Notes: a model not told the origin generated them from the letters alone. A stretch of 64,000 bases of DNA from an uncultured Bacilli bacterium (GCA_934130165.1 CAKOXO010000004.1:51415-115414); one strand, 5' to 3'; counted from the first letter of the stretch, positions 4,627 to 39,550 are shown. Numbers and translations: made by a program.

Positions 4627-5805
4627 TTAATTTTCATGATAAACTTTCATTTTAATTTTTATATCCTCATCCATTTTTTTCAATACATTTTCTTCTAACT
4701 CTCCATAATCTGAAAACATTCTACTAAACTCCTTAATGTTAAAACTATTAGCCCTATTTTCAAGAAACCTCTCTTTATAAAAATTATATTTATCAGGATC
4801 GCTTTCCTTTAAATAATTGTAGTAAATTGATAATATACCTCCATATCCATAAACCAAATCATTATGTATATCAAGTTCACTTGGTATAATATCTTCATAT
4901 AAAACTATATCTTTATTATTTTTTCTTACATTAGCCATTAATTTGCTTGGGTCTAAGTTTATATACGCATCTCCAACTAATAACTTATCATCTAGATAAC
5001 TTAACACTAATAAATTTTTTAATGATTCTATAATATTATAATAATAATCTTCAGTTAGTGAAGAAGCATCTTCGTTGTAAATATTATTTCTTAAAAGATA
5101 AGATAGAAAATTTTTCTCCATCAGCATAGGAAAAACTTCATTATATATAGATTTTAAATAATATTCATTATCAGAAGTAAAACCTTTAGTATTATTTAAG
5201 TTAGTAAAGTCAATAACATGACCAAGTTCATGAATTATAGATCTCATAGTGATAACTGAACTATCATCATCCATTATTAAAATACAACAAGTATTATTTA
5301 TTGTATTATGAGTTGTATATCCAGCATAACCAAATTCATCATTTAATCCTTTAAAAATCCTTTTTTCTTTTAATAACTTATTAAAAGAATCTGCCAAACC
5401 TTCTTCTGATAGGTAACCCATCATAATATCATACATTTCCTTATAACTTAATTTTACATCCTCACTAATAGAAAATAGTTCTTCTTGCCTTCTACTCATA
5501 TTATAGTATAAATCGTTAACAAACAAGCCATGAAAACTTTTATTATCAATAAAGTTTTTTATATAACTTTCTGAGTCTTTTTTTTGAATTTCATCGGAAA
5601 TTTTAACCTTTTTTTGGTTCGTTTTCTTATATAAATTCATACTCTTAGGAGTTTTACTACTAACATCATTGTATAATTCTATTAAAAGTTCTATTGTAGA
5701 GACAATTCCAACAATTCTATCCCTATCTTTTTCAGTTCTTAATTCCAATTCTAAATTTTTTATTTCTTTTTTTATTACATCTAAATCCCCTGTATATAAG
5801 TTCAT
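4627..5805 (-). CDS. M3-like zinc metallopeptidase (HExxH), short form, paralog 1
   Basis: 'IIHELGHVIDF' is a HExxH motif. The C-terminus ('GGILSIYYNYLKESDPDKYNFYKERF') resembles the oligoendopeptidase F tail. At 392 aa it is shorter than PepF (~600 aa). Confidence 0.5.
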   Translation of the reverse strand: MNLYTGDLDVIKKEIKNLELELRTEKDRDRIVGIVSTIELLIELYNDVSSKTPKSMNLYKKTNQKKVKISDEIQKKDSESYIKNFIDNKSFHGLFVNDLYYNMSRRQEELFSISEDVKLSYKEMYDIMMGYLSEEGLADSFNKLLKEKRIFKGLNDEFGYAGYTTHNTINNTCCILIMDDDSSVITMRSIIHELGHVIDFTNLNNTKGFTSDNEYYLKSIYNEVFPMLMEKNFLSYLLRNNIYNEDASSLTEDYYYNIIESLKNLLVLSYLDDKLLVGDAYINLDPSKLMANVRKNNKDIVLYEDIIPSELDIHNDLVYGYGGILSIYYNYLKESDPDKYNFYKERFLENRANSFNIKEFSRMFSDYGELEENVLKKMDEDIKIKMKVYHEN

Positions 5806-5812
5806 ACTAACA

Positions 5813-6979
5813 CTACTTCCTATAATTTTTATTTTGAACTTTTTGATATTTTGTCATTTCACATCTTACTATTTGCCCTAATTCATCTATGTTGGTTCCT
5901 AACATTTGTAAATGACATTCATTATAATCAGTTGTTCTTATTTGTTTAAACTTATCCATTACTGTATTATATTTATCAGGATCACTCTTTTCAAGATAAG
6001 AAAAATATGTTCCTAATACTCCACCATATGAATATAAAATCTCATCATTTAAATCAAGATTCGATAATAATTCCATATCTTCTATATCAAGACCTTTTTT
6101 TCTATATATTTCAACTAACTCTTCTCTAGAATACTCCATATATATATCATCTTTTAATAAATCATTATCAAGAAGAGATAAAAACATCATTTGATTTAAA
6201 AAAGTAAATGTTGTTAAATAGTTTTTATTTAATTCATTTATAGCGTACTCTTTTTCAATATTATTTTCTATTAAATATTCTAAAAAATCTTTTTCTGCCT
6301 TTATGGCTAGCACTTCTGAATAAATACTGTTATGTTGATATGAGAATGAAGCTACTTTAGAGTTTTTGCTTTCTATATCTCTCATTTCTTTAATATGTTC
6401 TACCTCATGTACTAGTATTGTCATCATTGATTTTTTTAAATTATTTTCACTAAAAGTAACAATATTACCCTTTTTATTATAATAATCCATTATCGTTGAT
6501 GCATAAACATTACTATCTAAAACATCATGGTTATAAAGATTTTTATTTTTTATTAGATCATTTAATATTTTTAAATCATCACCTGACGTATTTAAATAAT
6601 ATTCACTTACTATTTTATATAAATATTCTTCTGTTATTGTAGAACAATCCTCATTAAAGTCTTTTAAACAATCAAGCATTGAAGACATAATACTACTTGA
6701 AAAATCTAAATGATGATCTTTATTTTCTATAAAACTATCACTTCTATCTTTGATTAGTTCACTTGCCCTATCCAAAATACTATTATATTTTTCTGATTGT
6801 TCTATTAATTTAACATCTTCATAACTACAATTAAAATAATCACAATAAAGTTCGATTAATGGTACAATTGAAAATAATAATAAAACACCATCAGTGATAT
6901 CATCACATTTTTGAAACTCTGATAATAGTATATCAAGTTGTTTTTTTATACTATTTTTATCCCCTGTAAATACTTTCAT
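5813..6979 (-). CDS. M3-like zinc metallopeptidase (HExxH), paralog 2
   Basis: 'ILVHEVEHIKE' and 'GGVLGTYFSYLEKSDPDKYNTVMDKF' parallel paralog 1. The start was moved to the ATG at 6977-6979 ('MKVFTGDKNS', compare paralog 1 'MNLYTGDLD'), which has an AGGGGA ribosome-binding site. Confidence 0.5.
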   Translation of the reverse strand: MKVFTGDKNSIKKQLDILLSEFQKCDDITDGVLLLFSIVPLIELYCDYFNCSYEDVKLIEQSEKYNSILDRASELIKDRSDSFIENKDHHLDFSSSIMSSMLDCLKDFNEDCSTITEEYLYKIVSEYYLNTSGDDLKILNDLIKNKNLYNHDVLDSNVYASTIMDYYNKKGNIVTFSENNLKKSMMTILVHEVEHIKEMRDIESKNSKVASFSYQHNSIYSEVLAIKAEKDFLEYLIENNIEKEYAINELNKNYLTTFTFLNQMMFLSLLDNDLLKDDIYMEYSREELVEIYRKKGLDIEDMELLSNLDLNDEILYSYGGVLGTYFSYLEKSDPDKYNTVMDKFKQIRTTDYNECHLQMLGTNIDELGQIVRCEMTKYQKVQNKNYRK

Positions 6980-6981
6980 AA

Positions 6982-7578
6982 CTATCCCCTTTTTGAATAA
7001 ATACATCCACAATAATTTTGTCTATATAAGTTATATTCTTTAGAAAGTTCAATACTTCTTTTATATCCATTATTTTTCTTAAAATCAGAATATAGATAAT
7101 TAGTTTTATATTTTTTATCAAGTTCTTCTCCAATTTCATTAATCCAGTTACTATTTTTATAAGGACTCAATGATAAAGTTGTTGTAAAATAAGAATATCC
7201 AAGCTTTTCTGCTACTCTAGCAGTTTCTTCAAGTCTTAATAAATAGCACTTATAACATCTAGGACCACGTTCTTTTTCTTTTTCTAGGCCTTTAGCCATA
7301 TCAAAAAACTCATTTGGATCATATCTACCATCTATTACTTTTATTTTATACTTTGTTTTGAATTTTTCACAAAATCTATGAATTTCATCTAATCTCTTAT
7401 GATATTCACCTTCATCTGTTATATTAGGGTTATAGTACAAAATACTAATATCAAATATATTCCCAAGGCGTTCTAAGACAGCTGATGAACACGGAGCACA
7501 ACAAGCATGTAATAATAATGTAGGTGCTTTCTCACTTATATTTTCTATTTCTTTTTCCATTAAAAGATTATAATTCAT
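6982..7578 (-). CDS. queH: epoxyqueuosine reductase QueH (DUF208)
   Basis: 'LLLHACCAPCSS' matches the signature Cys cluster, and a C-terminal 'YCGCIYS' is present. 198 aa. Confidence 0.85.
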   Translation of the reverse strand: MNYNLLMEKEIENISEKAPTLLLHACCAPCSSAVLERLGNIFDISILYYNPNITDEGEYHKRLDEIHRFCEKFKTKYKIKVIDGRYDPNEFFDMAKGLEKEKERGPRCYKCYLLRLEETARVAEKLGYSYFTTTLSLSPYKNSNWINEIGEELDKKYKTNYLYSDFKKNNGYKRSIELSKEYNLYRQNYCGCIYSKRG

Positions 7579-7680
7579 AAACTTGCCCCTTTCTTTCCAC
7601 CTAAAATAACATATTTTTTGTATTTTTTCAATTATTATTAATAATAATCATACTTTTTAATTAAAATAATACAATTTAAT

Positions 7681-8415
7681 ATGAATAATATAACATTTTC
7701 GTTTTTAGTTACAACAGTAGCTGGGTTATCAACCATGCTAGGAACAATTCCAATTTTTTTTAAATTTAAAAATACCAACAATATTATTAATGGAGCTATC
7801 TCCTTCGCTGCAGGGGTAATGGCATCGGTATCTATATTTTCCCTTTTACCAGAAAGTATGGAACTATTATCAAAAAAACATACCATCCTTGGTAGTATAA
7901 TTCTAATAATTATATTTGCTTTAATTGGAATATTATTAGCAAGTTTCATTGATAAAGTATTTAAAAAAATAGATAACAAACTTTATAAATTAGGAATAAT
8001 AAATAGTATTGCATTAATGATTCATAACATTCCTGAAGGGATATTAACATTCAGTACAACAACCGCTAATGTATCTTTAGGAATTACTTTAGCCTTATCT
8101 ATTATGTTTCATAATATTCCTGAAGGTATTAGTATAAGTATTCCCATTTATTACTCAACAGGAAATAGATTCAAAGCTTTTTTATATACCTTTATTTCTG
8201 GTATATCAGAATTACTTGGAGCATTAATAACCTATATATTTTTATATAAGTATATTAATTTTAGTTTTATTAGTAGTATTTTAGCTATGACATTTGGAAT
8301 AATGATTTACATCTCGTTATTCGAACTATTTCCAACTTCATTAAAATATAAAAATAAAAAAATATCACTAATATTTTTCGCACTAGGCTTTATATTTATG
8401 ATATTTTTCAAATAA
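7681..8415 (+). CDS. zupT: ZIP-family zinc transporter (ZupT-like)
   Basis: Two 'HNIPEG' motifs inside transmembrane helices, about 8 transmembrane segments, 244 aa. Confidence 0.85.
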   Translation: MNNITFSFLVTTVAGLSTMLGTIPIFFKFKNTNNIINGAISFAAGVMASVSIFSLLPESMELLSKKHTILGSIILIIIFALIGILLASFIDKVFKKIDNKLYKLGIINSIALMIHNIPEGILTFSTTTANVSLGITLALSIMFHNIPEGISISIPIYYSTGNRFKAFLYTFISGISELLGALITYIFLYKYINFSFISSILAMTFGIMIYISLFELFPTSLKYKNKKISLIFFALGFIFMIFFK

Positions 8416-8988
8416 TTATTTACTATAAAATGGTACTTTATCGTTAACACATTTAATAATTTTTTCTGAAATATTGTTATCTTTAACAATATTTTTAATT
8501 AGAGTATTGAAATTTTTTCCAAAGGTTGCCTTATTATATGAATAGAAATCAATATCATCTAGCTCTACGTCTTTTAATTGTTTTTCTTTATATGTTTCTA
8601 ATAATTCCTCTACGCTATTTCCAATATGTATACCATTAAACTCTTTTACTGTTCTTTCAAATAATTTATACTTATCATCATCTTTATAAATTAAAAAGGC
8701 ATGGTTTTTATATGGTGTGTAAAATGTTTTAGTTGGGTAATTATGATCACTAAACCACTTTCTTTCAAATTCTACTTGATCATAACAAATTCCACATTTA
8801 CTTTTTAATAACTCCTTTGGTGTTTGTAGGTAAAAATTATTAAATAGAATTTTCTCATATAATTCATCATCATTCATTTCTTCTCTAATATGTTTATCTG
8901 AATCTATATTTGATAAATATCCATATCTAAAATTATTTCTCATAAAAATATATAAATCTTCTGGTGTTTTTATATCTTCATATTTCAT
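8416..8988 (-). CDS. cytoplasmic Cys/His protein, possible NlpC/P60-like papain-fold enzyme, paralog A
   Basis: The start was moved to 'MKYEDIKTPEDL' (ATG 8986-8988, GGAGGG ribosome-binding site). Conserved 'CGICYDQVEFERKWF', 'HAFLIYKDDDKYKLFE' and 'GIH'. No signal peptide. It is a paralog of the gene at 10430-11002. Confidence 0.4.
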   Translation of the reverse strand: MKYEDIKTPEDLYIFMRNNFRYGYLSNIDSDKHIREEMNDDELYEKILFNNFYLQTPKELLKSKCGICYDQVEFERKWFSDHNYPTKTFYTPYKNHAFLIYKDDDKYKLFERTVKEFNGIHIGNSVEELLETYKEKQLKDVELDDIDFYSYNKATFGKNFNTLIKNIVKDNNISEKIIKCVNDKVPFYSK

Positions 8989-9027
8989 TATTATCCCTCC
9001 GTTTTTTCCCATTAAAAAGAGCTAAGA

Positions 9028-10380
9028 CTAGCTCATTAATCTTGTTAAAGTATTAGTTAGCTGTTGTTTAAATATTTCTGTTTTTTCATTATCTATATCA
9101 TTTGCAAATGTAGCTTTATCTGTATCTTCTTCTATTGTTGCTCCTTTTTTTATAGAGCTATCAATTACCACTTTTATATCTGCAACTGAAGTTTTTCTTG
9201 ATAGCGCCTTTATAGATAATTTAGTATTTAGTTTATATGCACTATTTTTCTTAACTTCTTTTAGTTTTTGATCTAAACTAGTAGTCATATTAGTATTATC
9301 TACATCATATTTAGCCACTGCTTTATATTGATTTTGTTCTTTAGTAATAGTTATTTTACCATTATTTTGTTGTTTTTCATCATACATGTTAATATTAACT
9401 GTATTATGATTATAGCTAATCTTAAAATTTCGTTTTTCTACATTTTTATCATATAAAGATAACATATCTTCTTTTCTTCCTTTTACATAACAAACTTCTG
9501 AATAATTGGAATCACTACCAAATGACAAACTATATTTTTTTATAATATATGTAATATTATCAGTATAGACTGAAAAAATAATTTTTTCATCTTTAGAGAT
9601 GATCTTTTCATTATTTTTTATTTTTGACTTTTTAAAATCACTATCTATTCCTGTTAAAATTTTATTTGCTTTATCATCTGCTTTTAAATCTTTTAAAACT
9701 GCCTGAGAAATACTAACAAGTCGCCTATTATCAAGTTCTAAAGTTATTTTTTGAACATTAACATTTTTACCATCAATTTCTATTTTATCACCACTTTTAG
9801 TAAAATAACTTTTATCCAAATGGTTTTTAAATGAGGTTAAAGTAAAGTTGTAAATGTAATCAAAATTTTCTCTACTAGTATTATCTTTATTTAGTGATTC
9901 AAAATAATTACTATTACCATTATTAATATAATTATCTAAAAATCCCTTTATATAATAGTATTCAGTATTATTTTCTATTAAATATTTCATTGAAAATAAC
10001 TCACTATCATCAATAGTGCTGTTAAAGTCCATATAAGCTTTTTTATTATTTAAGTCCTGTTTTATTGTTACCTTATTTTTAGTTTTATTTAAGTTATTAA
10101 TCAGGTTTGCTGTCATAGGTTCTTCTTGTAATAATTCACTATTAATATTAAACTTTATATCATTATTCATAGTGAATGTATCAAATTTACTTAGATTATC
10201 ATATTCAGGAAGATAATACTTAGTAATATCTGTTTTTATGTTATTTATTGCCTTTCCTATTATTCTTTTATTATTCTGAAAATATCCTATATATATTCCA
10301 GCACTAATAAGAACTACAGCAACTAAAGTAATGATTATTATCAACTTAAGTTTTGATTTATCATTATTAGTATCACTCAT
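9028..10380 (-). CDS. N-terminally membrane-anchored extracellular protein, function unknown
   Basis: The start was moved to ATG 10378-10380 (GAGGAG ribosome-binding site). One N-terminal transmembrane helix ('LKLIIIITLVAVVLISAGIYIGYF') is followed by a ~420-aa polar domain rich in N, K and D. Confidence 0.5.
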   Translation of the reverse strand: MSDTNNDKSKLKLIIIITLVAVVLISAGIYIGYFQNNKRIIGKAINNIKTDITKYYLPEYDNLSKFDTFTMNNDIKFNINSELLQEEPMTANLINNLNKTKNKVTIKQDLNNKKAYMDFNSTIDDSELFSMKYLIENNTEYYYIKGFLDNYINNGNSNYFESLNKDNTSRENFDYIYNFTLTSFKNHLDKSYFTKSGDKIEIDGKNVNVQKITLELDNRRLVSISQAVLKDLKADDKANKILTGIDSDFKKSKIKNNEKIISKDEKIIFSVYTDNITYIIKKYSLSFGSDSNYSEVCYVKGRKEDMLSLYDKNVEKRNFKISYNHNTVNINMYDEKQQNNGKITITKEQNQYKAVAKYDVDNTNMTTSLDQKLKEVKKNSAYKLNTKLSIKALSRKTSVADIKVVIDSSIKKGATIEEDTDKATFANDIDNEKTEIFKQQLTNTLTRLMS

Positions 10381-10429
10381 AATTTCACTCCTCATTGTAC
10401 TTTAAGTATAAAGAAATAACCTATAAAAG

Positions 10430-11002
10430 TCAATTATCACTATTTAACTTAGTACTATTAATACAAAAATCAATATATTCTTTAGCACTCAAATGAGGTT
10501 TTGGTTTATCAATTTCTCTTATTTCAAAGTAAGAAAGTTCATCATCTTTTATATTTTGCTTTTTTAATTCTTTGTAATTCTCATCGTATTCAAACTTTAA
10601 TAGTTCCCCTAAAGTATCAAATTCATGGATTCCTCTAAGTTCTTCCCATGCATGCTCAAAAAAGCACCATTTATCACCCTTTTTATACACTAAAAATGAA
10701 TGTGCAGAATAATTATTTACATAAGGCAAATTAACCATATGATAAAAAACTTTAATTTCATAATTATTATTAATAAACCATTCTCTTTCAAATTCAGTTT
10801 GATCAAAGCAATTACCTACTCCCGTTTTTAAAATATCTTCAGTAGTAGATAGAATATATTTATCATACCAACAATCATTAAAATTAGTGGTATCTATTTT
10901 ATATATTATTCCATCATTTCCAAGATAACCATAACTAATATTTGTATTCATAAATTTTAATAACTCACCTGGTGTTTTTATATCTTTATATTCCATTTTC
11001 AT
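10430..11002 (-). CDS. cytoplasmic Cys/His protein, possible NlpC/P60-like papain-fold enzyme, paralog B
   Basis: 'MEYKDIKTPGELLKFM', 'VGNCFDQTEFEREWF' and 'HSFLVYKKGDKWCFFEHAWEELRGIH' align with paralog A. Its start overlaps the upstream stop (ATGA). Confidence 0.4.
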   Translation of the reverse strand: MKMEYKDIKTPGELLKFMNTNISYGYLGNDGIIYKIDTTNFNDCWYDKYILSTTEDILKTGVGNCFDQTEFEREWFINNNYEIKVFYHMVNLPYVNNYSAHSFLVYKKGDKWCFFEHAWEELRGIHEFDTLGELLKFEYDENYKELKKQNIKDDELSYFEIREIDKPKPHLSAKEYIDFCINSTKLNSDN

Positions 11003-12744
11003 AATTTTCTCCTACTTTCACTTTCTACTTCTTTATCAAGGGATTCGTAAAACATATATATAATTATTGGAAAAGCTGTAAAAAATGGATATACATACCT
11101 AAGAATTGCTACAGGTGCTAGGATATCAGTACACAAATATAATAGTAATAATAGTAATGGTAAGAATAATTTATAGTTTTTCTTATACAATGTAAAAACT
11201 AAAACAAAAATAAATATCAATACATAAAATGACATATTCATTATTACATTTAAAATAATATTGTTCTGATATTTTGCATCCCTAACTAGTTTATAATAAT
11301 TTTTATATAAATTACTTTTATTACTACAGTTATCGCTTCTAGAAAATGTATTATTGCTTGTATCTAGACAGTTTATTTCAATATATGTTTTCGCATTTTT
11401 ATCTGGCAATTTGTCATTTAAATAGAAAAAACTATATACATTATTTACTATTGAATCAATAAATGTATTAGGATATTTCTTAAGTAAATTAAAATATAGC
11501 TTTAAATACTTAGATTTATCATTTAATAACTCCTCTGTATTAAACTCACTTTTTATGGGATCAGAAATATGAGAATTATACTTTTCTAAGGCATTATTTT
11601 TATATAAACTTTCAATACTTTTTCTTTCTTCTTTGGTTAATTTTTCTTTATTGTATACCCTTCCAAATTGCTGAACTACAAAACTAAACATTTCTATTCT
11701 TGGACCATCTTCTATTTTTAAAACATTGCTTAAAAATAAGTTATATGATTCAAATATAAATATAATAGATGAGAAAACAATAATTAACTTTTTATAATAT
11801 TTTTTTAATACTACTAATACAAATGGTATAAATAATAAAAATGCATAAAACATATTATTTCTAAATGATAATAGTAAAAAACACATAATAATAAATACTA
11901 CTATATTTTTCTTATTATTTAAAAAAATTTCTGTATCTGTAGATAATTCTATTGTCTTAATTAACACTAGGTTAAATAATCCTGAAAATATAATATCCTT
12001 AGTTGTTGTAATTGCTAATACACTATGTGTAGGTAAAAACATATATAATAATAAAAATATTAAATTATATTTTTTAGGAAATTTTTTCTTGTTTAAATAA
12101 ATTAAGGTATATGAGAATATTAAAGTCATAATAATAATTTGAGATATACTATGAATTAATAATCCTATATTGTATGAAGAAAACAGTTTGTTTCCAGTAA
12201 ATATTGTTACGTATAGGAAAAAGGTATGTATAACAGGATGATATTTTGTAACTAGATTAAACTTTAACATCCTAAGTTGGGTACCAGCATCATATGAGAA
12301 ATTACCAGGATAAAAAGCTATTAATATCGGCAAATAAGAAAGAATCATTAATAACATCAATACTAGTAAGCTATACTTTTTTTCAAATAAAAATTCATAA
12401 AATTTATTACTATTAATATCTTCTTTTTTTACTATATTATATAGCTTCCAAGTAACAATAAAGATAGTAGGGGCCAATATTAAAATAGATATATATGTCA
12501 TAATTTTATTTAGTGCTGCTGTATCATTTAAATAACAATTATATCCTACTACTTGTGTCGATGAAAAAATAAGTGAAAATAAGAAACAAAAAATCATTTT
12601 TCTTCTATCATGATTATACAATTTATAAATATAAAAATATTCTCCAATTATTAATACTATTTCCAGTAATAAATTATTAAATATTTTAAAGACTATTACT
12701 GATAAAATAGTAGTTATAAATAATAATATTTTTTTGATATTCAT
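10999..12744 (-). CDS. polytopic membrane protein; uncharacterised family, possibly GT-C-like
   Basis: About 12 transmembrane helices, a ~170-aa soluble insert ('GPRIEMFSFVVQQFGRVYNKEKLTKEERKSIESLY'), then C-terminal transmembrane helices. It is homologous to the gene at 36732-38219 ('KKNIVVFIIMCFLLLSFRNN' ~ 'KNKVLFIIMCFFMVYIRHNG'). The start was moved to ATG 12742-12744, because the track start is a GTG. Confidence 0.5.
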   Translation of the reverse strand: MNIKKILLFITTILSVIVFKIFNNLLLEIVLIIGEYFYIYKLYNHDRRKMIFCFLFSLIFSSTQVVGYNCYLNDTAALNKIMTYISILILAPTIFIVTWKLYNIVKKEDINSNKFYEFLFEKKYSLLVLMLLMILSYLPILIAFYPGNFSYDAGTQLRMLKFNLVTKYHPVIHTFFLYVTIFTGNKLFSSYNIGLLIHSISQIIIMTLIFSYTLIYLNKKKFPKKYNLIFLLLYMFLPTHSVLAITTTKDIIFSGLFNLVLIKTIELSTDTEIFLNNKKNIVVFIIMCFLLLSFRNNMFYAFLLFIPFVLVVLKKYYKKLIIVFSSIIFIFESYNLFLSNVLKIEDGPRIEMFSFVVQQFGRVYNKEKLTKEERKSIESLYKNNALEKYNSHISDPIKSEFNTEELLNDKSKYLKLYFNLLKKYPNTFIDSIVNNVYSFFYLNDKLPDKNAKTYIEINCLDTSNNTFSRSDNCSNKSNLYKNYYKLVRDAKYQNNIILNVIMNMSFYVLIFIFVLVFTLYKKNYKLFLPLLLLLLYLCTDILAPVAILRYVYPFFTAFPIIIYMFYESLDKEVESESRRKL

Positions 12745-12774
12745 AAAATGCACCTACTTTTCTACAAATGTAAC

Positions 12775-13780
12775 TTATCCATTTTCTTCTAATAATAAAT
12801 CAAAGTCTGATTTATATAATTTATCCTGCCTTATTCTGTACTTTTCAAATTCAGTTAATGCTTTATCACAAGCAATTTCATGAGATATTTTTCCGGCATC
12901 TTTTAATATATCTCTATTATCAAGTAATAAATATTTATCTATTAAATTAACCCAATCTTCCATTGTCATTGGAATATGTCTTCTAGCTCTGTTTTCCGCT
13001 AATTCTAAGAAAGCACTTACAATTTTCTCTAAATCTTTTATTTCATCTTTTGATAAATAATTTTTAGCTATTAGAACATCAGATTCCATTATTTTACCAT
13101 TAGGAAAATTTTTCCAAGTAGTAATCCGAATTAGCTCTATTATATATAATTTCAGCAGCAGTCTGATTAGATACCGCGAAATTCATTTTATTCTGCACTT
13201 TTTTAAAAAAATTAATTGATATTGGAGACTTTTGATCATAATCTATGCTTGTTGCATAAATATCAGTAATTTTTTGGTAAAATCTTCTTTCTGATAATCT
13301 TATTTCTCTAATTTCTTCTAATAATTTTTCAAAGTAATCTTTATCAATGAATGAACCATTTTTCATTCTTTCTTTGTCTAATACATATCCTTGAATAGTA
13401 AATGTTTTCAGTACATTTGTTGCCCATCTTCTAAATTGTGTAGCTTTTAATGAATTCACTCTATAACCAACTGATATTATTGCATCTAAATTGTAAAATT
13501 CAATATTTCTTTTAACATTTCTATTTCCCTCTTTTTGAACTAATTCCATTTTGGAATAAGTTGAACTTTTATCTAATTCATTTTCATTATATATATTTAT
13601 AAGATGCTTTGCTATTGCAGGCTGTTCAACATCAAATAATTCTGCCATAGCTTTTTGTGTCATCCATAAAGTCTCGTTTTCATACCTAACTTGAATACCT
13701 TTATCTTTTTCTTGAAGTTTAAATGTAATAAACTCTTCCGCGCTACTTCTTATAACCAAATCTTTTGCCATCTCTATCAT
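12775..13780 (-). pseudogene. rhuM: RhuM-family (virulence/defence-island) gene disrupted by a frameshift
   Basis: ORF 13100-13780 carries the RhuM N-terminal and middle region ('LWMTQKAMAELF', 'FRRWATNVL'). ORF 12775-13089 carries the C-terminal part ('SDVLIAKNYLSKDEIKDLEKIVSAFLELAENRARRHIPMTMEDW'). Hand translation of the other frame upstream of 13089 gives 'ITTWKNFPNGKI', continuous with it. The frames switch inside 'TATATATA' at ~13131-13140. Confidence 0.7.
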
Positions 13781-13887
13781 CTCCTTCTAAATAATTTAAT
13801 TAACTACTTCATAATAAACGTATAACTATTAAGAATGTTTATTATGGATATATAATCTTCTTATAAAGCAATTAGCATAAATTTATA

Positions 13888-14484
13888 TTATATATTTATT
13901 ATTTTATAAAAAATTTCTTTTATATTTTCGCCTGTTACTTGATAAGCGTTAATGCCAAGTTGTTTTGCTCCATTTACATTCTTTTGATTATCATCAAAAA
14001 ATATTATATTATCTGCTTCACAATTAAGTGCATCAATCACTTGTAAATAAATATCGCTAGAGGGTTTTATACATTTAATTTCATATGATAAAAATAAGTA
14101 ATCAAAATTTATTTTTTTAATTTGTTCTTCATATCTTTTGTAATCCATTAGCCTAAGATTAGATAATAGTCCAACTTTATATCCTTTATTTTTTAATTCA
14201 TTTATAATTTCCATAGTTTCATCATATAAAGAATTATCTAAACTATTATATATTTCATAAAATTGATTAATTGATAAATCACTTTTACAAAACTTTAATA
14301 ATGCTTCAACATGTTCGTCATCTGTGGCAAGCCCCATATGAGCTTTTAATACTAAATCATCACCCCACCAATATTGTAAAAATTCATCATATGAAATTTT
14401 ACAATTTAATTTATTATACAAACCATAATCATCTAAAGATTTTGCTAAAACATTTCCAAGATCAAATAAAAATATTCTATCCAT
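13888..14484 (-). CDS. HAD-superfamily hydrolase (subfamily IA-like phosphatase)
   Basis: N-terminal 'FLFDLGNVL' is the DxG nucleophile motif. 'GLLSN' is motif II and 'FFDDNQKNVNGAKQLGI' is motif IV. Confidence 0.75.
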   Translation of the reverse strand: MDRIFLFDLGNVLAKSLDDYGLYNKLNCKISYDEFLQYWWGDDLVLKAHMGLATDDEHVEALLKFCKSDLSINQFYEIYNSLDNSLYDETMEIINELKNKGYKVGLLSNLRLMDYKRYEEQIKKINFDYLFLSYEIKCIKPSSDIYLQVIDALNCEADNIIFFDDNQKNVNGAKQLGINAYQVTGENIKEIFYKIINI

Positions 14485-14486
14485 AA

Positions 14487-15044
14487 TTATACCTCAATAT
14501 TGCTTTCTATATATTTATAAATATCATTATATGTTTCATATCTATCTAATGAAGTATCAAAATAACAAATATTATTTAAAATACATTCATTATAAAGATT
14601 TATACTATTATTAATCGTTTCTTTTGAAATAGATAAAAGATCTTCCTCACTGTATCCATAAGTCCAATCAAGATTAATATCATGTTCTAATATTTTATTT
14701 TTCAATTCTTCAGCAGAAATTTCTTTACATCCAATACCAATTATTAAAGAATTTTTAAATATTTCTTTAGCATTTTTAATTAAAATATCAGCTGAATCAA
14801 TAACATAATAAATATTTCTTTTTAAATGTATATTGTTTTCATTAATTATAAAGTTTATAAATTTACAAAAATCTTTATTCTCAATTGTATTTTCTACTTT
14901 ATATCCAAGTTCAGGATATATATTAATGAAAGCATTTCTAATGCTATCACCACTCATATAATTAAAATTATATTTTGCACACAATATAGATGCTAATGTA
15001 GATTTTCCAACTCTAGATGATCCAATTATTATTATATTTTTCAT
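14487..15044 (-). CDS. small P-loop kinase-like NTPase, paralog 2
   Basis: 'IIIGSSRVGKSTLA' is a Walker A motif and 'SGDSIRN' fits a kinase-type acceptor region. 185 aa. Its start overlaps the upstream stop (ATGA). Confidence 0.5.
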   Translation of the reverse strand: MKNIIIIGSSRVGKSTLASILCAKYNFNYMSGDSIRNAFINIYPELGYKVENTIENKDFCKFINFIINENNIHLKRNIYYVIDSADILIKNAKEIFKNSLIIGIGCKEISAEELKNKILEHDINLDWTYGYSEEDLLSISKETINNSINLYNECILNNICYFDTSLDRYETYNDIYKYIESNIEV

Positions 15045-15604
15045 ATATTCTCCTTTATTTCATTTAGCAATTCATTAAAAATACTTTCTCTGTTATAAGA
15101 TGTATCAATATATTTCATATTATATTTTTTACATTGTTCTATTATTTGATTTTCAAATTCTTTTGCTTTTTTTATATGATTTAATAAATTTTCATTTGTT
15201 CTTTTTGAAGTCCATTGATTTTCATCATCATAATATCTACAATTATTAAATATTTCCTCAACAGTCAAACTAGAATTCACAAAATAATAAACTATAGTAT
15301 TTGATAAATCAAAATAATTAATTAAATCCACTGGCATTATTGAATCTGAATTAATTATATAACTATATTCATTTCCTAATCTACTTTTATTTTTTTGAAG
15401 TAATATATTGATAAATTGAGATAATTTATTATCTTTCAAATAATCATGAGTAAAACCAATCTGAATATCATCAAAAGTGCTTTGTAATGCCGAAATAATA
15501 GCATCAACTTCTATAATTTGATAATTTTCTAGTTCTTTTTGTAATAATTTAGAAAATGTAGTTTTACCTGTTCTACAAGTTCCAAGTATCATTATATTTT
15601 TCAT
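15041..15604 (-). CDS. small P-loop kinase-like NTPase, paralog 1
   Basis: 'IMILGTCRTGKTTFS' is a Walker A motif. The start was moved to 'MKNIMILG' (ATG 15602-15604, AGAAGGA ribosome-binding site). It is a paralog of the downstream gene. Confidence 0.5.
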   Translation of the reverse strand: MKNIMILGTCRTGKTTFSKLLQKELENYQIIEVDAIISALQSTFDDIQIGFTHDYLKDNKLSQFINILLQKNKSRLGNEYSYIINSDSIMPVDLINYFDLSNTIVYYFVNSSLTVEEIFNNCRYYDDENQWTSKRTNENLLNHIKKAKEFENQIIEQCKKYNMKYIDTSYNRESIFNELLNEIKENI

Positions 15605-15816
15605 ATTTTTCCTTCTTTCAAAACATGCTTTCATAATTTATATTTATTATTAACTCTACAACACATACAATCTTATATAGTATGAGAAAACATATTCTCC
15701 ACAAACAACCTCCACAATATTTTTTCAAAAAACAATAAAAATATCAATTTTTTATCGTTTTTTCACCATTTTTTGGTCCCTACTGAATAGTTGATTTTTT
15801 CTTTATTTATAAGGGT

Positions 15817-17086: not shown

Positions 17087-18496
17087 ATGAAAAATACTAT
17101 AAAGATGATTAAAAAAAAATTAGGACCAAGTAAAGACTATATTTATAAAGAGATGATTGTAGATAAAACCTCTGTCTATTTAATATTTTCAGAGGTATTA
17201 ACTAGTGGTGATAATGTTAATGAATACATTTTAAAAGGATTAGTTACATTATCAAAAAAAGAATTAAAAAAACTTGAAAACTACTTGCCAACTAATAATA
17301 TTACAAAAATTAGTAAAGAAGAAATAACTGATTACATCAATAAAGGATTCGTAATATGTTTAGTAAATAAAGATATTTATGCAATAGAGATTAGGGCTAG
17401 TTTAGAAAGAGGTATTACTACAATCGAAAGTGAATTATCAGTAAATGGTCCGAAAGATTCTTTTTCAGAAAATTTTAATACTAATTTAGGTCTTATTAGA
17501 AGACGTATTAAAAGTGATAACTTATGGTGGGATGAAGTAAATCTAGGCGATGGTTCTAAAACAAAAATTGGTGTTTTATATATGAAAGATATTGTAAATG
17601 ATAATCTCCCTAAAGCTGTAATTGACAGATTAAATAAAATTGATATTGATGGAATAATTGATTCAAATTATTTAAAGGATGAACTTGAGAGTGATAACAA
17701 TAGCTTTTTTCCTACTATAATGTCAACAGAAAGACCTGATAAAGTAGCAATGGCACTATTAGAAGGAAAGGTTGCTATATTAGTTGATATGTCCTCATAT
17801 ATATTAATTTTACCTAACTTTTTTATAGACTATTTTAAAACTTGTGATGATTACTATCAAAAATCTATTAATACAACATTCATTAGAGTTATAAGAATTT
17901 TTGCATTTTTTATTTCAATTTTTATACCTGCTTATTATATTGCTGTAACAACATATAATCATGATGCAATACAGCTTCCACTTCTTTTACTACTCAAAGC
18001 TCAAAGAATGTCAGTTCCCTTCCCTGCTGTTGTTGAAGCTTTATTTATGATTATTTCATTTGAAATATTACGTGAAAGTGATATTAGAATGTCTTCAACC
18101 ACTGGGAGTGCCATTTCTATATTAGGAGGTATTATATTAGGTGATGCCGCTGTTAGTGCAGGAATTATGTCCCCTATTATGATAATAATAATTGCATTAT
18201 CTTCTATTGCTGGATTTGTATTCACATCTATTGAACTTGTTAATGCTATTAGAATGTACCGAATTATATTTTTATTCTTAGCGTGTACTTTAGGACTATA
18301 TGGAATATATTTGGGTGCCGTATATTTGTTATATAAACTAATAACTATTAAATCATTTGATAAACCGTATTTAGCACCCTTTTCTCCATTCATCAAAACA
18401 GAATTTAAAGATGCTATAGTAAAAGCTAAAAACAAAGGAAAAAAATATAGAAATCCTTTACTATCAAAAAATAAATTAAGGGGTGAATATAAGTGA
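17087..18496 (+). CDS. gerAA: spore germination receptor subunit A (GerAA family)
   Basis: Soluble N-terminal domain ('SVNGPKDSFSENFNTNLGLIRRRI') followed by 4-5 C-terminal transmembrane helices. 469 aa. Confidence 0.8.
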   Translation: MKNTIKMIKKKLGPSKDYIYKEMIVDKTSVYLIFSEVLTSGDNVNEYILKGLVTLSKKELKKLENYLPTNNITKISKEEITDYINKGFVICLVNKDIYAIEIRASLERGITTIESELSVNGPKDSFSENFNTNLGLIRRRIKSDNLWWDEVNLGDGSKTKIGVLYMKDIVNDNLPKAVIDRLNKIDIDGIIDSNYLKDELESDNNSFFPTIMSTERPDKVAMALLEGKVAILVDMSSYILILPNFFIDYFKTCDDYYQKSINTTFIRVIRIFAFFISIFIPAYYIAVTTYNHDAIQLPLLLLLKAQRMSVPFPAVVEALFMIISFEILRESDIRMSSTTGSAISILGGIILGDAAVSAGIMSPIMIIIIALSSIAGFVFTSIELVNAIRMYRIIFLFLACTLGLYGIYLGAVYLLYKLITIKSFDKPYLAPFSPFIKTEFKDAIVKAKNKGKKYRNPLLSKNKLRGEYK

Positions 18497-19059
18497 AAAA
18501 AGTATTTATAACAATATTTCTTATAATATTCATTTTTGGTAGTAGTTCATATCAAGAACTTAATAAACTAGCTATTATAACTAACATAGGTATCTTAGAA
18601 GAAGAAGGACAATATAAAGTAATATATCAAGAAATAATTCCCGAAAAAGAAAATAATAAAATAATGAAAAAATATAAATATTATGAAAATAAAAGTAATA
18701 ATTTACAAAGTGCCTTTTCAAGGCTTAATGAAGATACAACTAAATATATATACTTGGATCATTTAGAAAATATTATTATTAAAACGAATGATAATAAAGT
18801 TTTTGATGAGTTAATAAACTATTTTGATAAAGATATAGATAATTTTAATATTGTCCTTACTTACGATAATCTAGAAAAAATAATAAAATACAGTAATAAT
18901 TATAAATATATTAATAGCCTAATAGATAATAATGTCTCATTTAGAGAAATAAAAAAAGCAAATTTAGAAAATAAAAGAATTAAAGTACCGGTAATAAAGC
19001 TTAGTAATAATAATTTGTCTTTTTATAAATATATAAGGTTGGGTGATTTTAATGATTAA
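18493..19059 (+). CDS. Ger(x)C-like germination protein, half-length and lacking a lipobox cysteine
   Basis: The N-terminal region 'SYQELNKLAIITNIGILEEEGQYKVIYQEIIP' resembles the GerAC N-terminus. It has only 188 aa against ~370, and the leader ends 'IFGSSS' with no cysteine. Confidence 0.5.
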   Translation: MKKVFITIFLIIFIFGSSSYQELNKLAIITNIGILEEEGQYKVIYQEIIPEKENNKIMKKYKYYENKSNNLQSAFSRLNEDTTKYIYLDHLENIIIKTNDNKVFDELINYFDKDIDNFNIVLTYDNLEKIIKYSNNYKYINSLIDNNVSFREIKKANLENKRIKVPVIKLSNNNLSFYKYIRLGDFND

Positions 19060-19822
19060 AAAGGATTTATCAGTAATTGCCTTAGTTTTTTTCTTAACTA
19101 GATGTTTTTTTAATTTATCGACTTTTAACAATTTATATAGTTTTCTTATTACGGCAACATCAATATTTATAGCAATACTAGGGTTAAAACTAATTAAAAA
19201 AGATATCCTATCTAACAAAATAATAGATATTATTTATATGATTATAATAATTTATATTTTTGCAATTATTCTTATCAATGCCACGATGTTTATAAATACT
19301 AATTATTTTAGATATAATAATTACATTATCATAGGACTATCCCTAATTGGAATTTCATACATAATTGGTAAAGATGAAATAAAAACGATTAGTTCTATTA
19401 GTGAAATATTTCTTTTTGTGTTTATTATAATAAGTTTAGTTGCATATATAGGTTTAATTTCATTAATAAAAATAAATAACTATAGTGGTTTTATTACATT
19501 TAATAACATATCAATCAACTTACTACCAGGATTTATTATATTTATACTACTATATTTAAAAGATGATAATATTTGTACTGGTTATATTATTGGAGTTATA
19601 TCTTCGCTATTAGATTCATTTTTACTTATTGGTTGCTTAGGAAATAAATTAATTATGAGTTACAAATTTCCAGGAATTGCAGTTTTAAAAAGTCTAAATT
19701 TATTTCATTTTATAAATCATTTAGATAAACTATTATCTTTTATCTATTTATTTGAATATACCATTACTCTTTCATTAATTATTAATATAATTATAAACAT
19801 CAAAAAAAAGATAGGTTCATGA
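19052..19822 (+). CDS. Ger(x)B-like polytopic membrane protein (APC-type germinant receptor subunit), shortened
   Basis: About 7-8 transmembrane helices in 257 aa. Its position as third gene of an A-C-B operon fits. ATG 19052 with an AAGGTTGGGTG ribosome-binding site. Confidence 0.5.
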   Translation: MIKKDLSVIALVFFLTRCFFNLSTFNNLYSFLITATSIFIAILGLKLIKKDILSNKIIDIIYMIIIIYIFAIILINATMFINTNYFRYNNYIIIGLSLIGISYIIGKDEIKTISSISEIFLFVFIIISLVAYIGLISLIKINNYSGFITFNNISINLLPGFIIFILLYLKDDNICTGYIIGVISSLLDSFLLIGCLGNKLIMSYKFPGIAVLKSLNLFHFINHLDKLLSFIYLFEYTITLSLIINIIINIKKKIGS

Positions 19823-33001: not shown

Positions 33002-34089
33002 ACTTCTTTACTCCTTACAAAATTAATTAATATCTCATTACTTACATATATTTTATCTTCTGGTATATAAATATTTTCATTATTACATATCAAATTATTT
33101 GATACTAAGCTATCGATAGGATAAATATTTTCAATTTTTTCTCCATATTTATTTTCAAAATATTTTTTATTTACTCCTTTTAACAACCTCAAGCCTAATA
33201 TCATTTCATAATCCATTATATCAGATTTTGATAAATTATCATATTCCAAAATATAATTTCCCCTCATATATTTTTTTATACTTCTAGTATTTGTTATTCT
33301 CCTACTACCTATATATGATGATGCACCTAGTCCAAAACCGTAATAGTTTTTATTTTTCCAATAACAAAGATTATGTTTTGATTCATATCCTTTTTTAGAA
33401 AAATTGCTTATTTCATAGTGTTCATAATCTTTTAGTTTATTAATTATTAATTTATACATTTCATAATCTAAATCTTCATCAATGTAATCAGTTTTATTTA
33501 TAGCTAGTTTAGTATGAGGTTCAATTATAAGTGAATATGTTGATATATGCTCTGGTTTTAGTGATAAAACAAAGTCTATATCATTTGATAAATCGTCCAA
33601 GGTTTCATTTGGGATTGCGTACATTAAATCTATATTGATATTATCAAAATCCAAATTCCTACATAAGTCAATTATATATTTAACTCTTTTTTTACTTTCT
33701 TTCCTACCTAATAATGTTAAATTATTTTTATTAACTGTTTCTAGGCCAAAACTTATTCTATTAACTCCATTTTCCTTAAATAATTTCAATTTTTCTAAGG
33801 TTATACTATCAAAGTTACATTCTATTGTATATTCAATTTTTTCATTTTTCTTAAAAATGTTTAAAATATTAAATAGTTTTTTTAATTGCTCTAAAGTTAG
33901 TGATGATGGAGTTCCACCACCAATATATATTGTATCTAACTTTTCATTGTTATAAGTAGATAGTATTTCTTTTTCTAAACTAACTAGGTATTTATCAGTC
34001 AAATTTTCATTGTAAAAAAGTTTACAAAAGTCACAATATGAACAGATATTATTACAAAATGGTATATGAATATAGCAATTATTTGCCAT
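32998..34089 (-). CDS. hemW: radical SAM heme chaperone HemW (HemN-like, oxygen-independent coproporphyrinogen oxidase family)
   Basis: 'CNNICSYCDFC' is the CxxxCxxC motif. 363 aa. It sits downstream of lepA as in Bacillus. Confidence 0.8.
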   Translation of the reverse strand: MANNCYIHIPFCNNICSYCDFCKLFYNENLTDKYLVSLEKEILSTYNNEKLDTIYIGGGTPSSLTLEQLKKLFNILNIFKKNEKIEYTIECNFDSITLEKLKLFKENGVNRISFGLETVNKNNLTLLGRKESKKRVKYIIDLCRNLDFDNINIDLMYAIPNETLDDLSNDIDFVLSLKPEHISTYSLIIEPHTKLAINKTDYIDEDLDYEMYKLIINKLKDYEHYEISNFSKKGYESKHNLCYWKNKNYYGFGLGASSYIGSRRITNTRSIKKYMRGNYILEYDNLSKSDIMDYEMILGLRLLKGVNKKYFENKYGEKIENIYPIDSLVSNNLICNNENIYIPEDKIYVSNEILINFVRSKEV

Positions 34090-34732
34090 GGGGTTTAAAA
34101 CTATTCTCCTTTAGTGGTTGCAATCTAGATTCATTTAATATTTCTTTTGCTATTTTACATTTTTCTTTGTCTATTTTTGAAAGTCTAGTAGTTAAATTTC
34201 TTTGAACTACATTCCAACTCAAGCCTTGTACATTTCCTATTTCTTCTATTGTATTACCTACTGATAAATAATTATAAGATGTAAGAACCTGTTCTATTAC
34301 TCTTTTGTTATTAGTTGAAAACGATTTATTTTCCATTAAGACATCAAACACTGCCTTATAATGTTTTATTGAAATATTAGGTAATCGTTTCTGAATATAA
34401 TCATGAATCGTTGTTTTACCAATTCCAAAGACTTTCGCTGTTTCTCTTACTGAACTTTTATTTTCTATAATATAATTTGCGATATCGATATAAAGTTCAT
34501 TATCTTTGGTTACAAGTGGCAAATTATCATCTAATGTATCGTAATATTTTTTAATATTATCTCTATGTTCAGAAACCTTACTATTTAATTTATTATCTAG
34601 TGTACAATAATTATCTAGTACTTCTACTACTTTATTTTTATCTATACATAAGTACTCAGCTAACTCATCATAAGTAAACCAATTATTTAAATATTCTTCA
34701 ATTATGCATTCTTTAGTAATATAATCTTCCAT
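34079..34732 (-). CDS. DNA-binding protein with tandem SpoIIID-like helix-turn-helix repeats
   Basis: Residues ~80-150 'NYIIENKSSVRETAKVFGIGKTTIHDYIQKRLPNISIKHYKAVFDVLMENKSF' match recalled SpoIIID 'KYIVETKKTVRVIAKEFGVSKSTVHKDLTERLPEINPDLANEVKEILDYHKSI'. A second similar unit is 'LSVGNTIEEIGNVQGLSWNVVQRNLTTRLSKIDKEKCKIAKEILNE'. The ~75-aa N-terminal region looks like another helix-turn-helix. Confidence 0.55.
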   Translation of the reverse strand: MEDYITKECIIEEYLNNWFTYDELAEYLCIDKNKVVEVLDNYCTLDNKLNSKVSEHRDNIKKYYDTLDDNLPLVTKDNELYIDIANYIIENKSSVRETAKVFGIGKTTIHDYIQKRLPNISIKHYKAVFDVLMENKSFSTNNKRVIEQVLTSYNYLSVGNTIEEIGNVQGLSWNVVQRNLTTRLSKIDKEKCKIAKEILNESRLQPLKENSFKPHGK

Positions 34733-36731: not shown

Positions 36732-38219
36732 TTAATCTTTTTTTATTTGGTTATTATATAATGCATAAACAATTAATGGATAAGTGCAAGTTATAGAAGG
36801 ATAGGCAAAACGCATTTCATCGCCAGTTACAAGGCAGGATACTATGATTACATTAGATATTACTAATATGTAAGGTATAAATCTTCTTATACCATCAATA
36901 CCCTTTCTTATAATTAAATATATTGAAAATAATATTAAGAAAAGAGCACTTCCTAAATCTATAAATAAAAATTTTAATGGAGTTTTAAAAATAAAATTTG
37001 TATAATAGTAAACCCCATTATTATTTTCTCTTGAATTATACTGAAAACAATAAAAACTTTTATAATGGTCTATTCTCCAATATATACTAGTAATTGCCAA
37101 ATAGTTTTTTAAAGATAATTTAGGATTTTTTACCGCTAAATCTAGCCATATTCTTACTACATCTAATGAGATACTTTTTAACTTTTTTAAATTATCTGGG
37201 CAGTTAAACTTTATTTCATTAAAATACATATATTTACTATAATTTCCATTAAAACACTCTTTTTTAAAGATACTATATATTTTATCTTGATATTCTTTTT
37301 TAAATCCCTTTCCATGTTCTTCTATATATCTAATTTGATTCAATGGAACTCCTAACATTTCAGCTGTACCAATATTAGGTTTTACATTTAAAAAATTATA
37401 TATAGGGCCGGTAATTATTACTCTAGCTGTTATAAATATAATAAAAAATGATACATAGAATTTCCTATATTTTTTATAAAAAATAATGAGTAATATCATC
37501 ATTAATAAAAAATTAGCAATACCATTATGTCTTATATATACCATAAAAAAGCACATAATAATAAATAATACTTTATTTTTAGTTTTAGAAATCCAATCAC
37601 CTTTAGTTATCACAATTTCAATTAAAAACATAGTTCCTACTAAAATAGTATAAGAAAACGGCACATCTTTTAATAGGCTTGACGTCATAACAAGAAAACT
37701 AGGATTTAAAACTATAAGTAACAGTATAATTATAGTCATACCTATATTTAGAAAGTATTTTCTTAAAAAATAACTTAAATAAATTAAACATACATATATA
37801 TATAATCCTTGAAATATTTTGCAAGAATAAAAACTATAATAAAAAATGGATGGCAATTTAACAAAGATAATTGTATATAAAAATGGATGCCAGTCACTAT
37901 AAATTCCTCTAGCTAAAACATTCCATATACCAGTAAAATCTGTAGGATAGCAATTATTATTTGCTATTGAAAAAACAATGGCAATAACTATTATATATGT
38001 GTATATTGCAAACTCTATTAATCTTATTTTTTTACTAGATTTAAATTTTATTTTATCAAGAAACTTTTGTATAAATAAAAATAAAATAAAAATTATAATT
38101 GTCCATGGAATAAATGAAAAATATCTAATTTCTCTATCATAACTAATACAAAATACAAAATATATAGCTAATAGAAGAAGTAATATATTGTTTAAATTAA
38201 ATATTTTTTTTAGTTTCAT
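36732..38219 (-). CDS. polytopic membrane protein, paralog of the gene at 10999-12744
   Basis: About 12 transmembrane helices. Shared blocks are 'LLKDVPFSYTIL', 'KNKVLFIIMCFFMVYIRHNG' and 'FYKKYRKF'. It is inserted between the yqxA-like gene and lepA. Confidence 0.5.
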   Translation of the reverse strand: MKLKKIFNLNNILLLLLAIYFVFCISYDREIRYFSFIPWTIIIFILFLFIQKFLDKIKFKSSKKIRLIEFAIYTYIIVIAIVFSIANNNCYPTDFTGIWNVLARGIYSDWHPFLYTIIFVKLPSIFYYSFYSCKIFQGLYIYVCLIYLSYFLRKYFLNIGMTIIILLLIVLNPSFLVMTSSLLKDVPFSYTILVGTMFLIEIVITKGDWISKTKNKVLFIIMCFFMVYIRHNGIANFLLMMILLIIFYKKYRKFYVSFFIIFITARVIITGPIYNFLNVKPNIGTAEMLGVPLNQIRYIEEHGKGFKKEYQDKIYSIFKKECFNGNYSKYMYFNEIKFNCPDNLKKLKSISLDVVRIWLDLAVKNPKLSLKNYLAITSIYWRIDHYKSFYCFQYNSRENNNGVYYYTNFIFKTPLKFLFIDLGSALFLILFSIYLIIRKGIDGIRRFIPYILVISNVIIVSCLVTGDEMRFAYPSITCTYPLIVYALYNNQIKKD

Positions 38220-38278: not shown

Positions 38279-38599
38279 TTATTCATCAACAACTTTATTA
38301 ACCTCACTAAATATAAATTTCATCATTGAATCAAAGACTATTTCAATAGTATTAGATAAAAGTTTACCTCCTTTAGATAATTTATTATTATAATCATTTT
38401 CCTCTTTTAAATAATCACTTGCCTTAACTTTTTTACCATTTTTAATATCTTTTTCAAACTGTTTTACGGCCTTTTCTGTCAAAGTATTAGTTTTTCTATT
38501 TGAATATTCATAATAGCCCATTGCTTGTGTCATATACAGTGCAGTGTATAATATTATTAATGTAAAGATAACAATTCTTGCTATGTTTTTACCCTTCAT
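38279..38599 (-). CDS. small N-anchored protein, YqxA-like by position
   Basis: 106 aa with one transmembrane helix. It lies immediately downstream of spoIIP, as yqxA does in B. subtilis. No sequence motif was recognised. Confidence 0.35.
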   Translation of the reverse strand: MKGKNIARIVIFTLIILYTALYMTQAMGYYEYSNRKTNTLTEKAVKQFEKDIKNGKKVKASDYLKEENDYNNKLSKGGKLLSNTIEIVFDSMMKFIFSEVNKVVDE

Positions 38600-39521: not shown

Positions 39522-39550
39522 CTATTAGAATAGTACTACTAAAAGTTATT

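Follow-up and report, generated by a model that had tools for sequence, protein, structure and literature searches.

The 64,000-nucleotide stretch of DNA analysed here (hereafter the window; GCA_934130165.1, CAKOXO010000004.1:51415-115414) comes from an uncultured Bacilli bacterium, and its minus strand carries, between positions 8416 and 12744, four genes that a sequence-only reading had proposed as an undescribed system for envelope modification and export. The four co-directional genes are confirmed by the listing of open reading frames (ORFs) and by the sequence itself. The first in the direction of transcription encodes a polytopic membrane protein of the Pfam family DUF6020 (10999..12744, minus strand; ORF 10999-12753), which from its likely ATG at 12744 is 581 aa long, as are the called orthologues. 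It is followed by TGL-B (10430..11002, minus strand; 190 aa), a cytoplasmic DUF553-type transglutaminase-like (TGL) Cys-His-Glu protein whose ATG overlaps the TGA of the upstream DUF6020 gene as ATGA. Next come a membrane-anchored protein of a lineage-restricted family (9028..10380, minus strand; ORF 9028-10395), whose likely start at 10380 behind GAGGAG yields 450 aa in agreement with its orthologues, and a second DUF553-type transglutaminase-like protein, TGL-A (8416..8988, minus strand; ORF 8416-9012; 190 aa), with a likely start at 8988 behind GGAGG. Four independent contigs of this species from gut metagenomes (L008-L011) carry the same four genes, 97-99% identical and in unchanged order, so the arrangement is real and not an artefact of assembly. 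The reading that we prefer, with a probability of about 0.72, is that the region juxtaposes three unrelated functions, namely a DUF6020 glycosyltransferase of the GT-C fold, two DUF553-type thiol enzymes and an orphan anchored protein, and that it does not constitute a conserved functional module.

This reading is carried by reciprocal surveys of gene neighbourhoods. The survey of TGL genes took one genome per GTDB species and comprised 80 loci, whose TGL proteins are 30-57% identical over the best matching segment; these loci are labelled mostly as uncultured gut or rumen Bacilli, Erysipelotrichaceae and 'Tenericutes'-type metagenome-assembled genomes, and in a few cases as Clostridia, Clostridium or Muribaculaceae. 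A homologue of DUF6020 or of the anchored protein lies within 10 kb of TGL at none of the 80 loci. No neighbouring family is common to more than 17 of them, the most frequent neighbours being an EcfA-like ATPase, an MBL-fold protein, ThrRS, RhuM and an SDR. The reverse survey drew on 80 metagenome loci of DUF6020 (37 groups at 80% identity; 44 loci with at least 3 kb on both sides), retrieved with an alignment of the closer DUF6020 sequences, and neither TGL nor the anchored protein occurs within 8 kb of DUF6020 at any of the 80, including the orthologues of 55-56% identity, in which galE follows and no TGL is present. Loci of the anchored protein in other species likewise lack both DUF6020 and TGL (4/4). 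Since the four genes are not neighbours in almost all other genomes, we regard their proximity as a species-level gene arrangement and not as a new system. The sequence-only reading had itself stated that finding the cassette genes unlinked in other genomes would refute its proposal, and this is what the surveys return in both directions (0/80 TGL loci and 0/80 DUF6020 loci); with the anchored gene also standing alone at syntenic loci, the proposed four-gene system for envelope modification and export is not supported.

The chromosomal site has been occupied differently in related species. In L092 and L095, whose anchored protein is 42-46% identical to that of the window, a conserved block runs from GerA and an rlmD-like methyltransferase through a set of variable genes to the anchored protein, zupT on the opposite strand, queH, a 389-aa protein and HisRS; the anchored gene thus lies next to zupT in a block without DUF6020, TGL-B or TGL-A. 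The block of L077 comprises the methyltransferase, an A-type TGL, a 253-aa protein and zupT-queH, without DUF6020 or the anchored protein. Even between strains of the same species, the segment from the rlmD-like methyltransferase to DUF6020 (window 12750-15800) varies, with two P-loop kinases, a HAD protein and a split RhuM gene in the window, L009 and L010, and an MFS transporter together with a class-A beta-lactamase-like gene in L008 and L011. The region is an interval of variable gene content, lying between the conserved rlmD-like methyltransferase and zupT-queH in a very AT-rich, spore-forming gut Bacillota. Within it, the 450-aa anchored protein would be the ancestral occupant of the site.

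The 581-aa membrane protein matches Pfam DUF6020 at 1.1e-35, contains at least 12 hydrophobic segments and has the GT-C transmembrane core fold, in line with the GT-C-like polytopic protein suspected from the sequence. Extra helices at its N-terminus were modelled with low confidence. Pfam scans of the window proteins, taken to E up to 1, gave no match of this protein to YfhO, PMT_2 or other named GT-C families, none of the four proteins has a match in NCBIfam, and no paper in the collection searched mentions DUF6020 or PF19484. Asp152, in the motif YPGNFSYD (codon 12291-12289, minus strand), follows helix 125-143 and is invariant in 25 sequences; K249-D250, R295 and R549-Y550 are among the other invariant residues. 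Lying in the loop after a transmembrane helix, this Asp may correspond to the conserved acidic residue in the first extracytoplasmic loop of the GT-C enzymes that we compared (ArnT, PglB/AglB, PMTs, ALG3/ALG12/PIG-M, AftB and PimE), provided that its loop is extracytoplasmic. DUF6020 is most often accompanied, in the metagenome survey, by a GT2 glycosyltransferase with a membrane anchor and a length of about 320 aa; 23 of the 37 groups have it, in most cases directly beside DUF6020. Other recurrent neighbours are GalE, MBOAT, additional polytopic proteins and an ABC ATPase that resembles TagH, and one DUF6020 homologue is fused to GtrA. By analogy, such a neighbourhood appears to be the signature of envelope glycosylation by a GT2, a flippase and a GT-C enzyme, and the GT2 neighbours and the GtrA fusion suggest a functional likeness of the family to the three-component Gram-positive systems of the CsbB/GtcA/YfhO type (GT2, GtrA and GT-C). 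Unlike in those systems, there is no GT2 or GtrA of that kind next to the DUF6020 gene of the window. The analogy with GT-C enzymes, together with the usual GT2 neighbour, suggests that DUF6020 most likely transfers a sugar at the outer face of the membrane, from a polyprenyl-phosphate-sugar donor to an envelope polymer or protein, with a putative catalytic role for Asp152. The window also encodes a second, divergent DUF6020 paralogue (36732-38219, minus strand) of 495 aa, which scores 5e-11 against Pfam and 3e-24 against our own profile.

Exactly one hydrophobic segment, near residues 7-35, is present in the 450-aa protein, which agrees with the earlier description of a membrane-anchored exported protein. 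Profile searches gave no credible Pfam or PDB match for it, and none of its 41 homologues of about 450 aa carries a Pfam domain; to judge from these comparisons, it represents a lineage-restricted family of bitopic exported proteins without a recognised domain. In more distant genomes (L093 and L094, around 7001-8340), the anchored gene lies directly after mraZ-rsmH-ftsL-PBP2B and before a dCMP deaminase-like gene, and these cell-division neighbours hint at an envelope- or division-related role.

TGL-A and TGL-B are 39% identical over 162 residues (E 3e-31 in a pairwise comparison) and share the motifs KCGICYDQVEFERKWF and GVGNCFDQTEFEREWF, respectively, followed by HAFLIYK..FE..GIH in TGL-A and HSFLVYK..FEH..GIH in TGL-B, so that the two 190-aa paralogues recognised from the sequence, with the motifs quoted for them, are upheld. 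Each protein is closer to its own orthologues than to the other (51-53% identity for TGL-A, in L077, L088 and L082, and 61% for TGL-B), and the pair therefore represents different old subfamilies rather than a recent duplication. Neither contains a hydrophobic segment, the maximum Kyte-Doolittle mean over 19 residues being 0.17. Pfam DUF553 is matched by TGL-A at 21.2 bits, just above the curated cut-off of 20.5, whereas TGL-B alone has no Pfam match; among 13 close relatives, the model scores in only two. Aligned with hhalign against bona fide domains matching DUF553 or Transglut_core, the TGL family gave a probability of 99.1% and an E-value of 9.6e-19, with the GNC-x-DQ, His and (F/W)E motifs superposed. 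Over 132 aligned TGL domains, in TGL-B numbering, conservation reaches 97% for C65, 100% for H101 and 99% for E116, and G63, D67, E70, R73, F76, F115, G124 and I125 are each conserved in more than 90%. The corresponding codons lie, all on the minus strand, at 10810-10808 (C65), 10702-10700 (H101) and 10657-10655 (E116) in TGL-B, and at 8787-8785 (C68), 8703-8701 (H96) and 8658-8656 (E111) in TGL-A. Both 190-aa proteins are assigned to the soluble, cytoplasmic Cys-His-Glu proteins of the transglutaminase-like DUF553 type.

The extent of this family became visible only in an exhaustive profile search, which returned 1,405 cluster representatives at E<=1e-3 and 659 at 1e-10 (clusters at 50% identity), while a word-indexed homologue search had found just 11 relatives. 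As far as these profile comparisons indicate, it is a large family that the DUF553 model mostly misses and that existing models cover poorly. Among 46 TGL proteins, the fusion partners of the TGL domain are further DUF553 domains (16/46), GNAT (10/46) and single cases of HAD, NUDIX, S41 and SET; no fusion to a glycosyltransferase occurs among the 46. The same profile search also brought up, outside the window, proteins of 800-1,670 aa (P0055-P0160) in which the DUF553-type domain occurs two to four times; GNAT acetyltransferase domains are present as well in ten of 46, and a SET domain in one. An origin of TGL-B in phages or other mobile elements was considered and dropped: tblastn gave no match for it in the phage or plasmid collections, and one giant TGL protein has a marginal phage match only. 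We also discarded the ORFs of 33 aa that lie beside TGL genes in L177-L180 as candidate substrate peptides, as they are mutually unrelated, one being a hydrophobic peptide and another resembling a fragment of a HAD hydrolase.

The AlphaFold model of TGL-B is confident, with a predicted local distance difference test (pLDDT) score of 93.5, and the TGL proteins have the transglutaminase-like core fold. The model places C65 at the first position of helix 65-78, H101 at the start of strand 101-108 and E116 at the end of strand 111-116, and these secondary-structure positions suggest the canonical papain/transglutaminase layout of Cys, His and Glu. The closest solved folds are CPR-C4 (PDB 7PJO) and the vasohibins; Foldseek returned the same families with weak scores (template-modelling scores of 0.35-0.47), and the two lists of structural matches contain no NlpC/P60 or LRAT structure among the neighbours of TGL-B. 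LRAT-type enzymes are circularly permuted, with the catalytic His before the Cys, which is opposite to the order Cys65-His101-Glu116. Of the fold assignments in the sequence-only reading, the cytoplasmic papain-fold Cys/His proteins of 190 aa and the GT-C-like membrane protein therefore stand, whereas placement of the former in NlpC/P60 or LRAT is not supported, as Pfam at E up to 1 lists neither LRAT nor a family of the NlpC/P60 type (NLPC_P60 or CHAP) for them; the likeness of these families to TGL is limited to a papain-like superfold, broadly defined, in which Cys is the nucleophile and His the base. A 2023 classification of papain-like enzymes places DUF553, the vasohibins and the arylamine N-acetyltransferases (NATs) in a transglutaminase-like group, apart from NlpC/P60 and LRAT (PMC10318531).

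Within this group, DUF553 (PF04473) is linked to the TGL proteins by sequence homology, by the GNC-x-DQ, H and (F/W)E signature and by the Cys-His-acid order. The TGL proteins differ in that most members, including TGL-B, fall below the Pfam threshold, in that the acidic residue is a near-invariant Glu, and in being small, stand-alone, cytoplasmic proteins from gut Bacilli; DUF553 itself is a family without an experimentally defined substrate. CPR-C4 is a bacterial casein-cleaving protease with an unknown natural substrate and a Cys-His-Leu(carbonyl) triad (PMC9108980). Like human VASH1/2, it resembles TGL as a small transglutaminase-like cysteine protease, but CPR-C4 and the vasohibins use a non-canonical triad with Leu(carbonyl) or Ser, whereas the TGL family has an invariant Glu. 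The near-invariant Gly124-Ile125 of TGL-B lies at roughly the spacing that separates the His from the third residue in CPR-C4 (24 residues against 22), with Glu116 also available as the third residue. At the level of sequence, phmmer and hmmsearch of TGL against all PDB sequences gave no match to CPR-C4 or VASH at E up to 10, and TGL-A, TGL-B and the family profile produced chance-level matches only (a dioxygenase, chymopapain at E 0.22 and Taz1).

Taken with the fold and the conserved residues, these comparisons suggest that TGL-A and TGL-B would use the Cys at the N-terminus of the helix, the His at the start of a strand and the Glu at the end of the next strand as a triad, and that they are most likely peptidases or amidases acting on a cytoplasmic substrate. 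The main alternative is acyl transfer in the manner of the arylamine NATs, the TGL proteins then being N-acyltransferases dependent on acyl-CoA, or enzymes that detoxify small molecules, rather than peptidases. NAT3 of Bacillus cereus, a member of the arylamine NAT group, has a Cys-His-Glu triad according to its PDB title, and TGL domains are recurrently fused to, or encoded near, GNAT, HAD, NUDIX, APH and P-loop kinase genes, which would suit such chemistry. At 190 aa, however, the TGL proteins are shorter than the matched NAT chains of 253-292 residues, and the match covers only 121-129 residues; this short length and partial span suggest that the additional NAT domains are missing. The Pfam scan, moreover, returned no sequence-level match to Acetyltransf_2 for TGL-A or TGL-B, and we consider this alternative unlikely.

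Whether the four genes cooperate is a question distinct from their individual chemistry. In a single system for envelope modification and export, a lipid or glycan intermediate would be made ready or acylated by the cytoplasmic Cys/His enzymes and then moved outside by the GT-C protein, with the anchored protein as acceptor or helper. The adjacency and shared direction of the genes, the ATGA overlap between DUF6020 and TGL-B, and the identical order on the four contigs of the same species are consistent with this, but a common strand and close packing say little here because the minus strand holds about 52 of the 61 window ORFs of at least 150 aa and overlaps of four nucleotides occur in at least five gene pairs of the window, so that both are the rule in this genome. 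The reciprocal surveys (0/80 and 0/80), the anchored gene without its partners next to zupT in L092 and L095 and beside cell-division genes in L093 and L094, the A-type TGL at the syntenic site of L077, the orthologues of DUF6020 that precede galE and the lack of fusions between TGL and glycosyltransferase domains all argue against it, and we find it very improbable. Some points weigh against the juxtaposition that we favour. The ATGA overlap of DUF6020 and TGL-B recurs in L176, where the TGL protein is 76% identical. In L004 (4585-9327), from an unrelated lineage, DUF6020, DUF2142 (a large protein whose Pfam family has no assigned function), TGL and GDPD (a glycerophosphodiester phosphodiesterase) form a run, the only other, and loose, co-occurrence of DUF6020 and TGL; together with L176, it leaves room for a functional pairing of DUF6020 and TGL-B restricted to a clade. 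The donor pathway of DUF6020 is not visible at this locus, as the window contains no GT2 partner. Finally, the geometry of the TGL-B triad is inferred from secondary-structure positions only.

The first two of these points speak for the single system as well as for a narrower cooperation, limited to DUF6020 and TGL-B in a small clade, with TGL-A and the anchored protein as bystanders. The cytoplasmic thiol enzyme of such a pair may, for example, act on the glycosyltransferase by processing or regulation, or it may modify the lipid-linked substrate of the transferase at the cytoplasmic face. The overlap in the window species and in L176 is of the type associated with translational coupling, and the TGL gene of L004 stands two genes from DUF6020, beside DUF2142 and the phosphodiesterase. 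Yet the pair is missing from all more distant TGL loci (61% identity and lower) and from all 80 DUF6020 loci, about one chance adjacency would be unsurprising among the roughly 90 genomes examined (a rough estimate), four-nucleotide overlaps are common in this genome, and the window's second DUF6020 paralogue is a solitary gene flanked by lepA and spoIIP and has no TGL in its vicinity. We hold a narrow pair to be improbable. It is conceivable, if distinctly doubtful, that a DUF553-type thiol enzyme was recruited in the clade of the window, and independently in the lineage of L004, as a dedicated partner of DUF6020, forming a two-component unit for envelope glycosylation in which a cytoplasmic peptidase or acyltransferase may act on the transferase or on its lipid-linked substrate; we know of no such pairing for GT-C enzymes. 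Juxtaposition of unrelated functions remains our preferred reading of the region.

The four genes probably share a transcript with their neighbours. A weak terminator-like hairpin with a T-run (9019..9034, minus strand) lies between the anchored gene, whose stop it directly follows, and TGL-A, and a weak promoter-like site, TTGACT-17-TATACT (10405..10433, minus strand), lies between TGL-B and the anchored gene. Both come from consensus scans, in which the two terminator sites found are one hairpin seen on both strands, against 0.8 expected, and the 89 promoter-like sites of the AT-rich region compare with 82.6 expected from shuffles; because the latter are not enriched, we did not draw operon boundaries from them. 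The hairpin and the promoter-like site are compatible with the anchored gene as an independent transcription unit, and in AT-rich DNA, where such scans do not discriminate, they may be taken as suggestive only.

Several features of the surrounding DNA are recorded here in their own right. The window is very AT-rich, with 22-31% G+C and a steadily negative GC skew. Despite its compact gene packing and very low G+C content, the organism is shown to form spores by its genes for GerA-type germination proteins, SpoIIP, the germination protease GPR and SpoIIID (17087-19822, 38589-40600 and 34079-34732). The RhuM-family gene upstream of DUF6020 is split into two ORFs (12775-13089 and 13100-13780, minus strand), which correspond to positions 1-146 and 162-249 of the profile; L009 and L010 have the gene split in the same way, and an intact RhuM adjoins TGL in nine of the 80 GTDB loci. 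At the other end of the interval, zupT on the plus strand and TGL-A on the minus strand converge at 8415/8416, their stop codons abutting with zero intergenic bases. Two tandem paralogues of about 390 aa (4627-5805 and 5813-6979, minus strand; 29% identity, E 7e-31) each contain an HExxH motif (HEVEH and HELGH) and have no Pfam match, and one or two copies of these HExxH proteins are kept downstream of queH in related species.

The candidate for an undescribed envelope system thus resolves into uncharacterised members of two known superfamilies and one orphan anchored protein. As a by-product, the analysis brings out, in gut Bacilli, an extensive family of small transglutaminase-like Cys-His-Glu proteins of the cytoplasm, whose domain is also found repeated and together with GNATs. 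DUF6020, a Pfam family without a function or a literature, can be annotated as a glycosyltransferase of the GT-C fold that is usually encoded beside a GT2 enzyme, and it is probably part of an envelope-glycosylation route of the three-component type in Bacillota.

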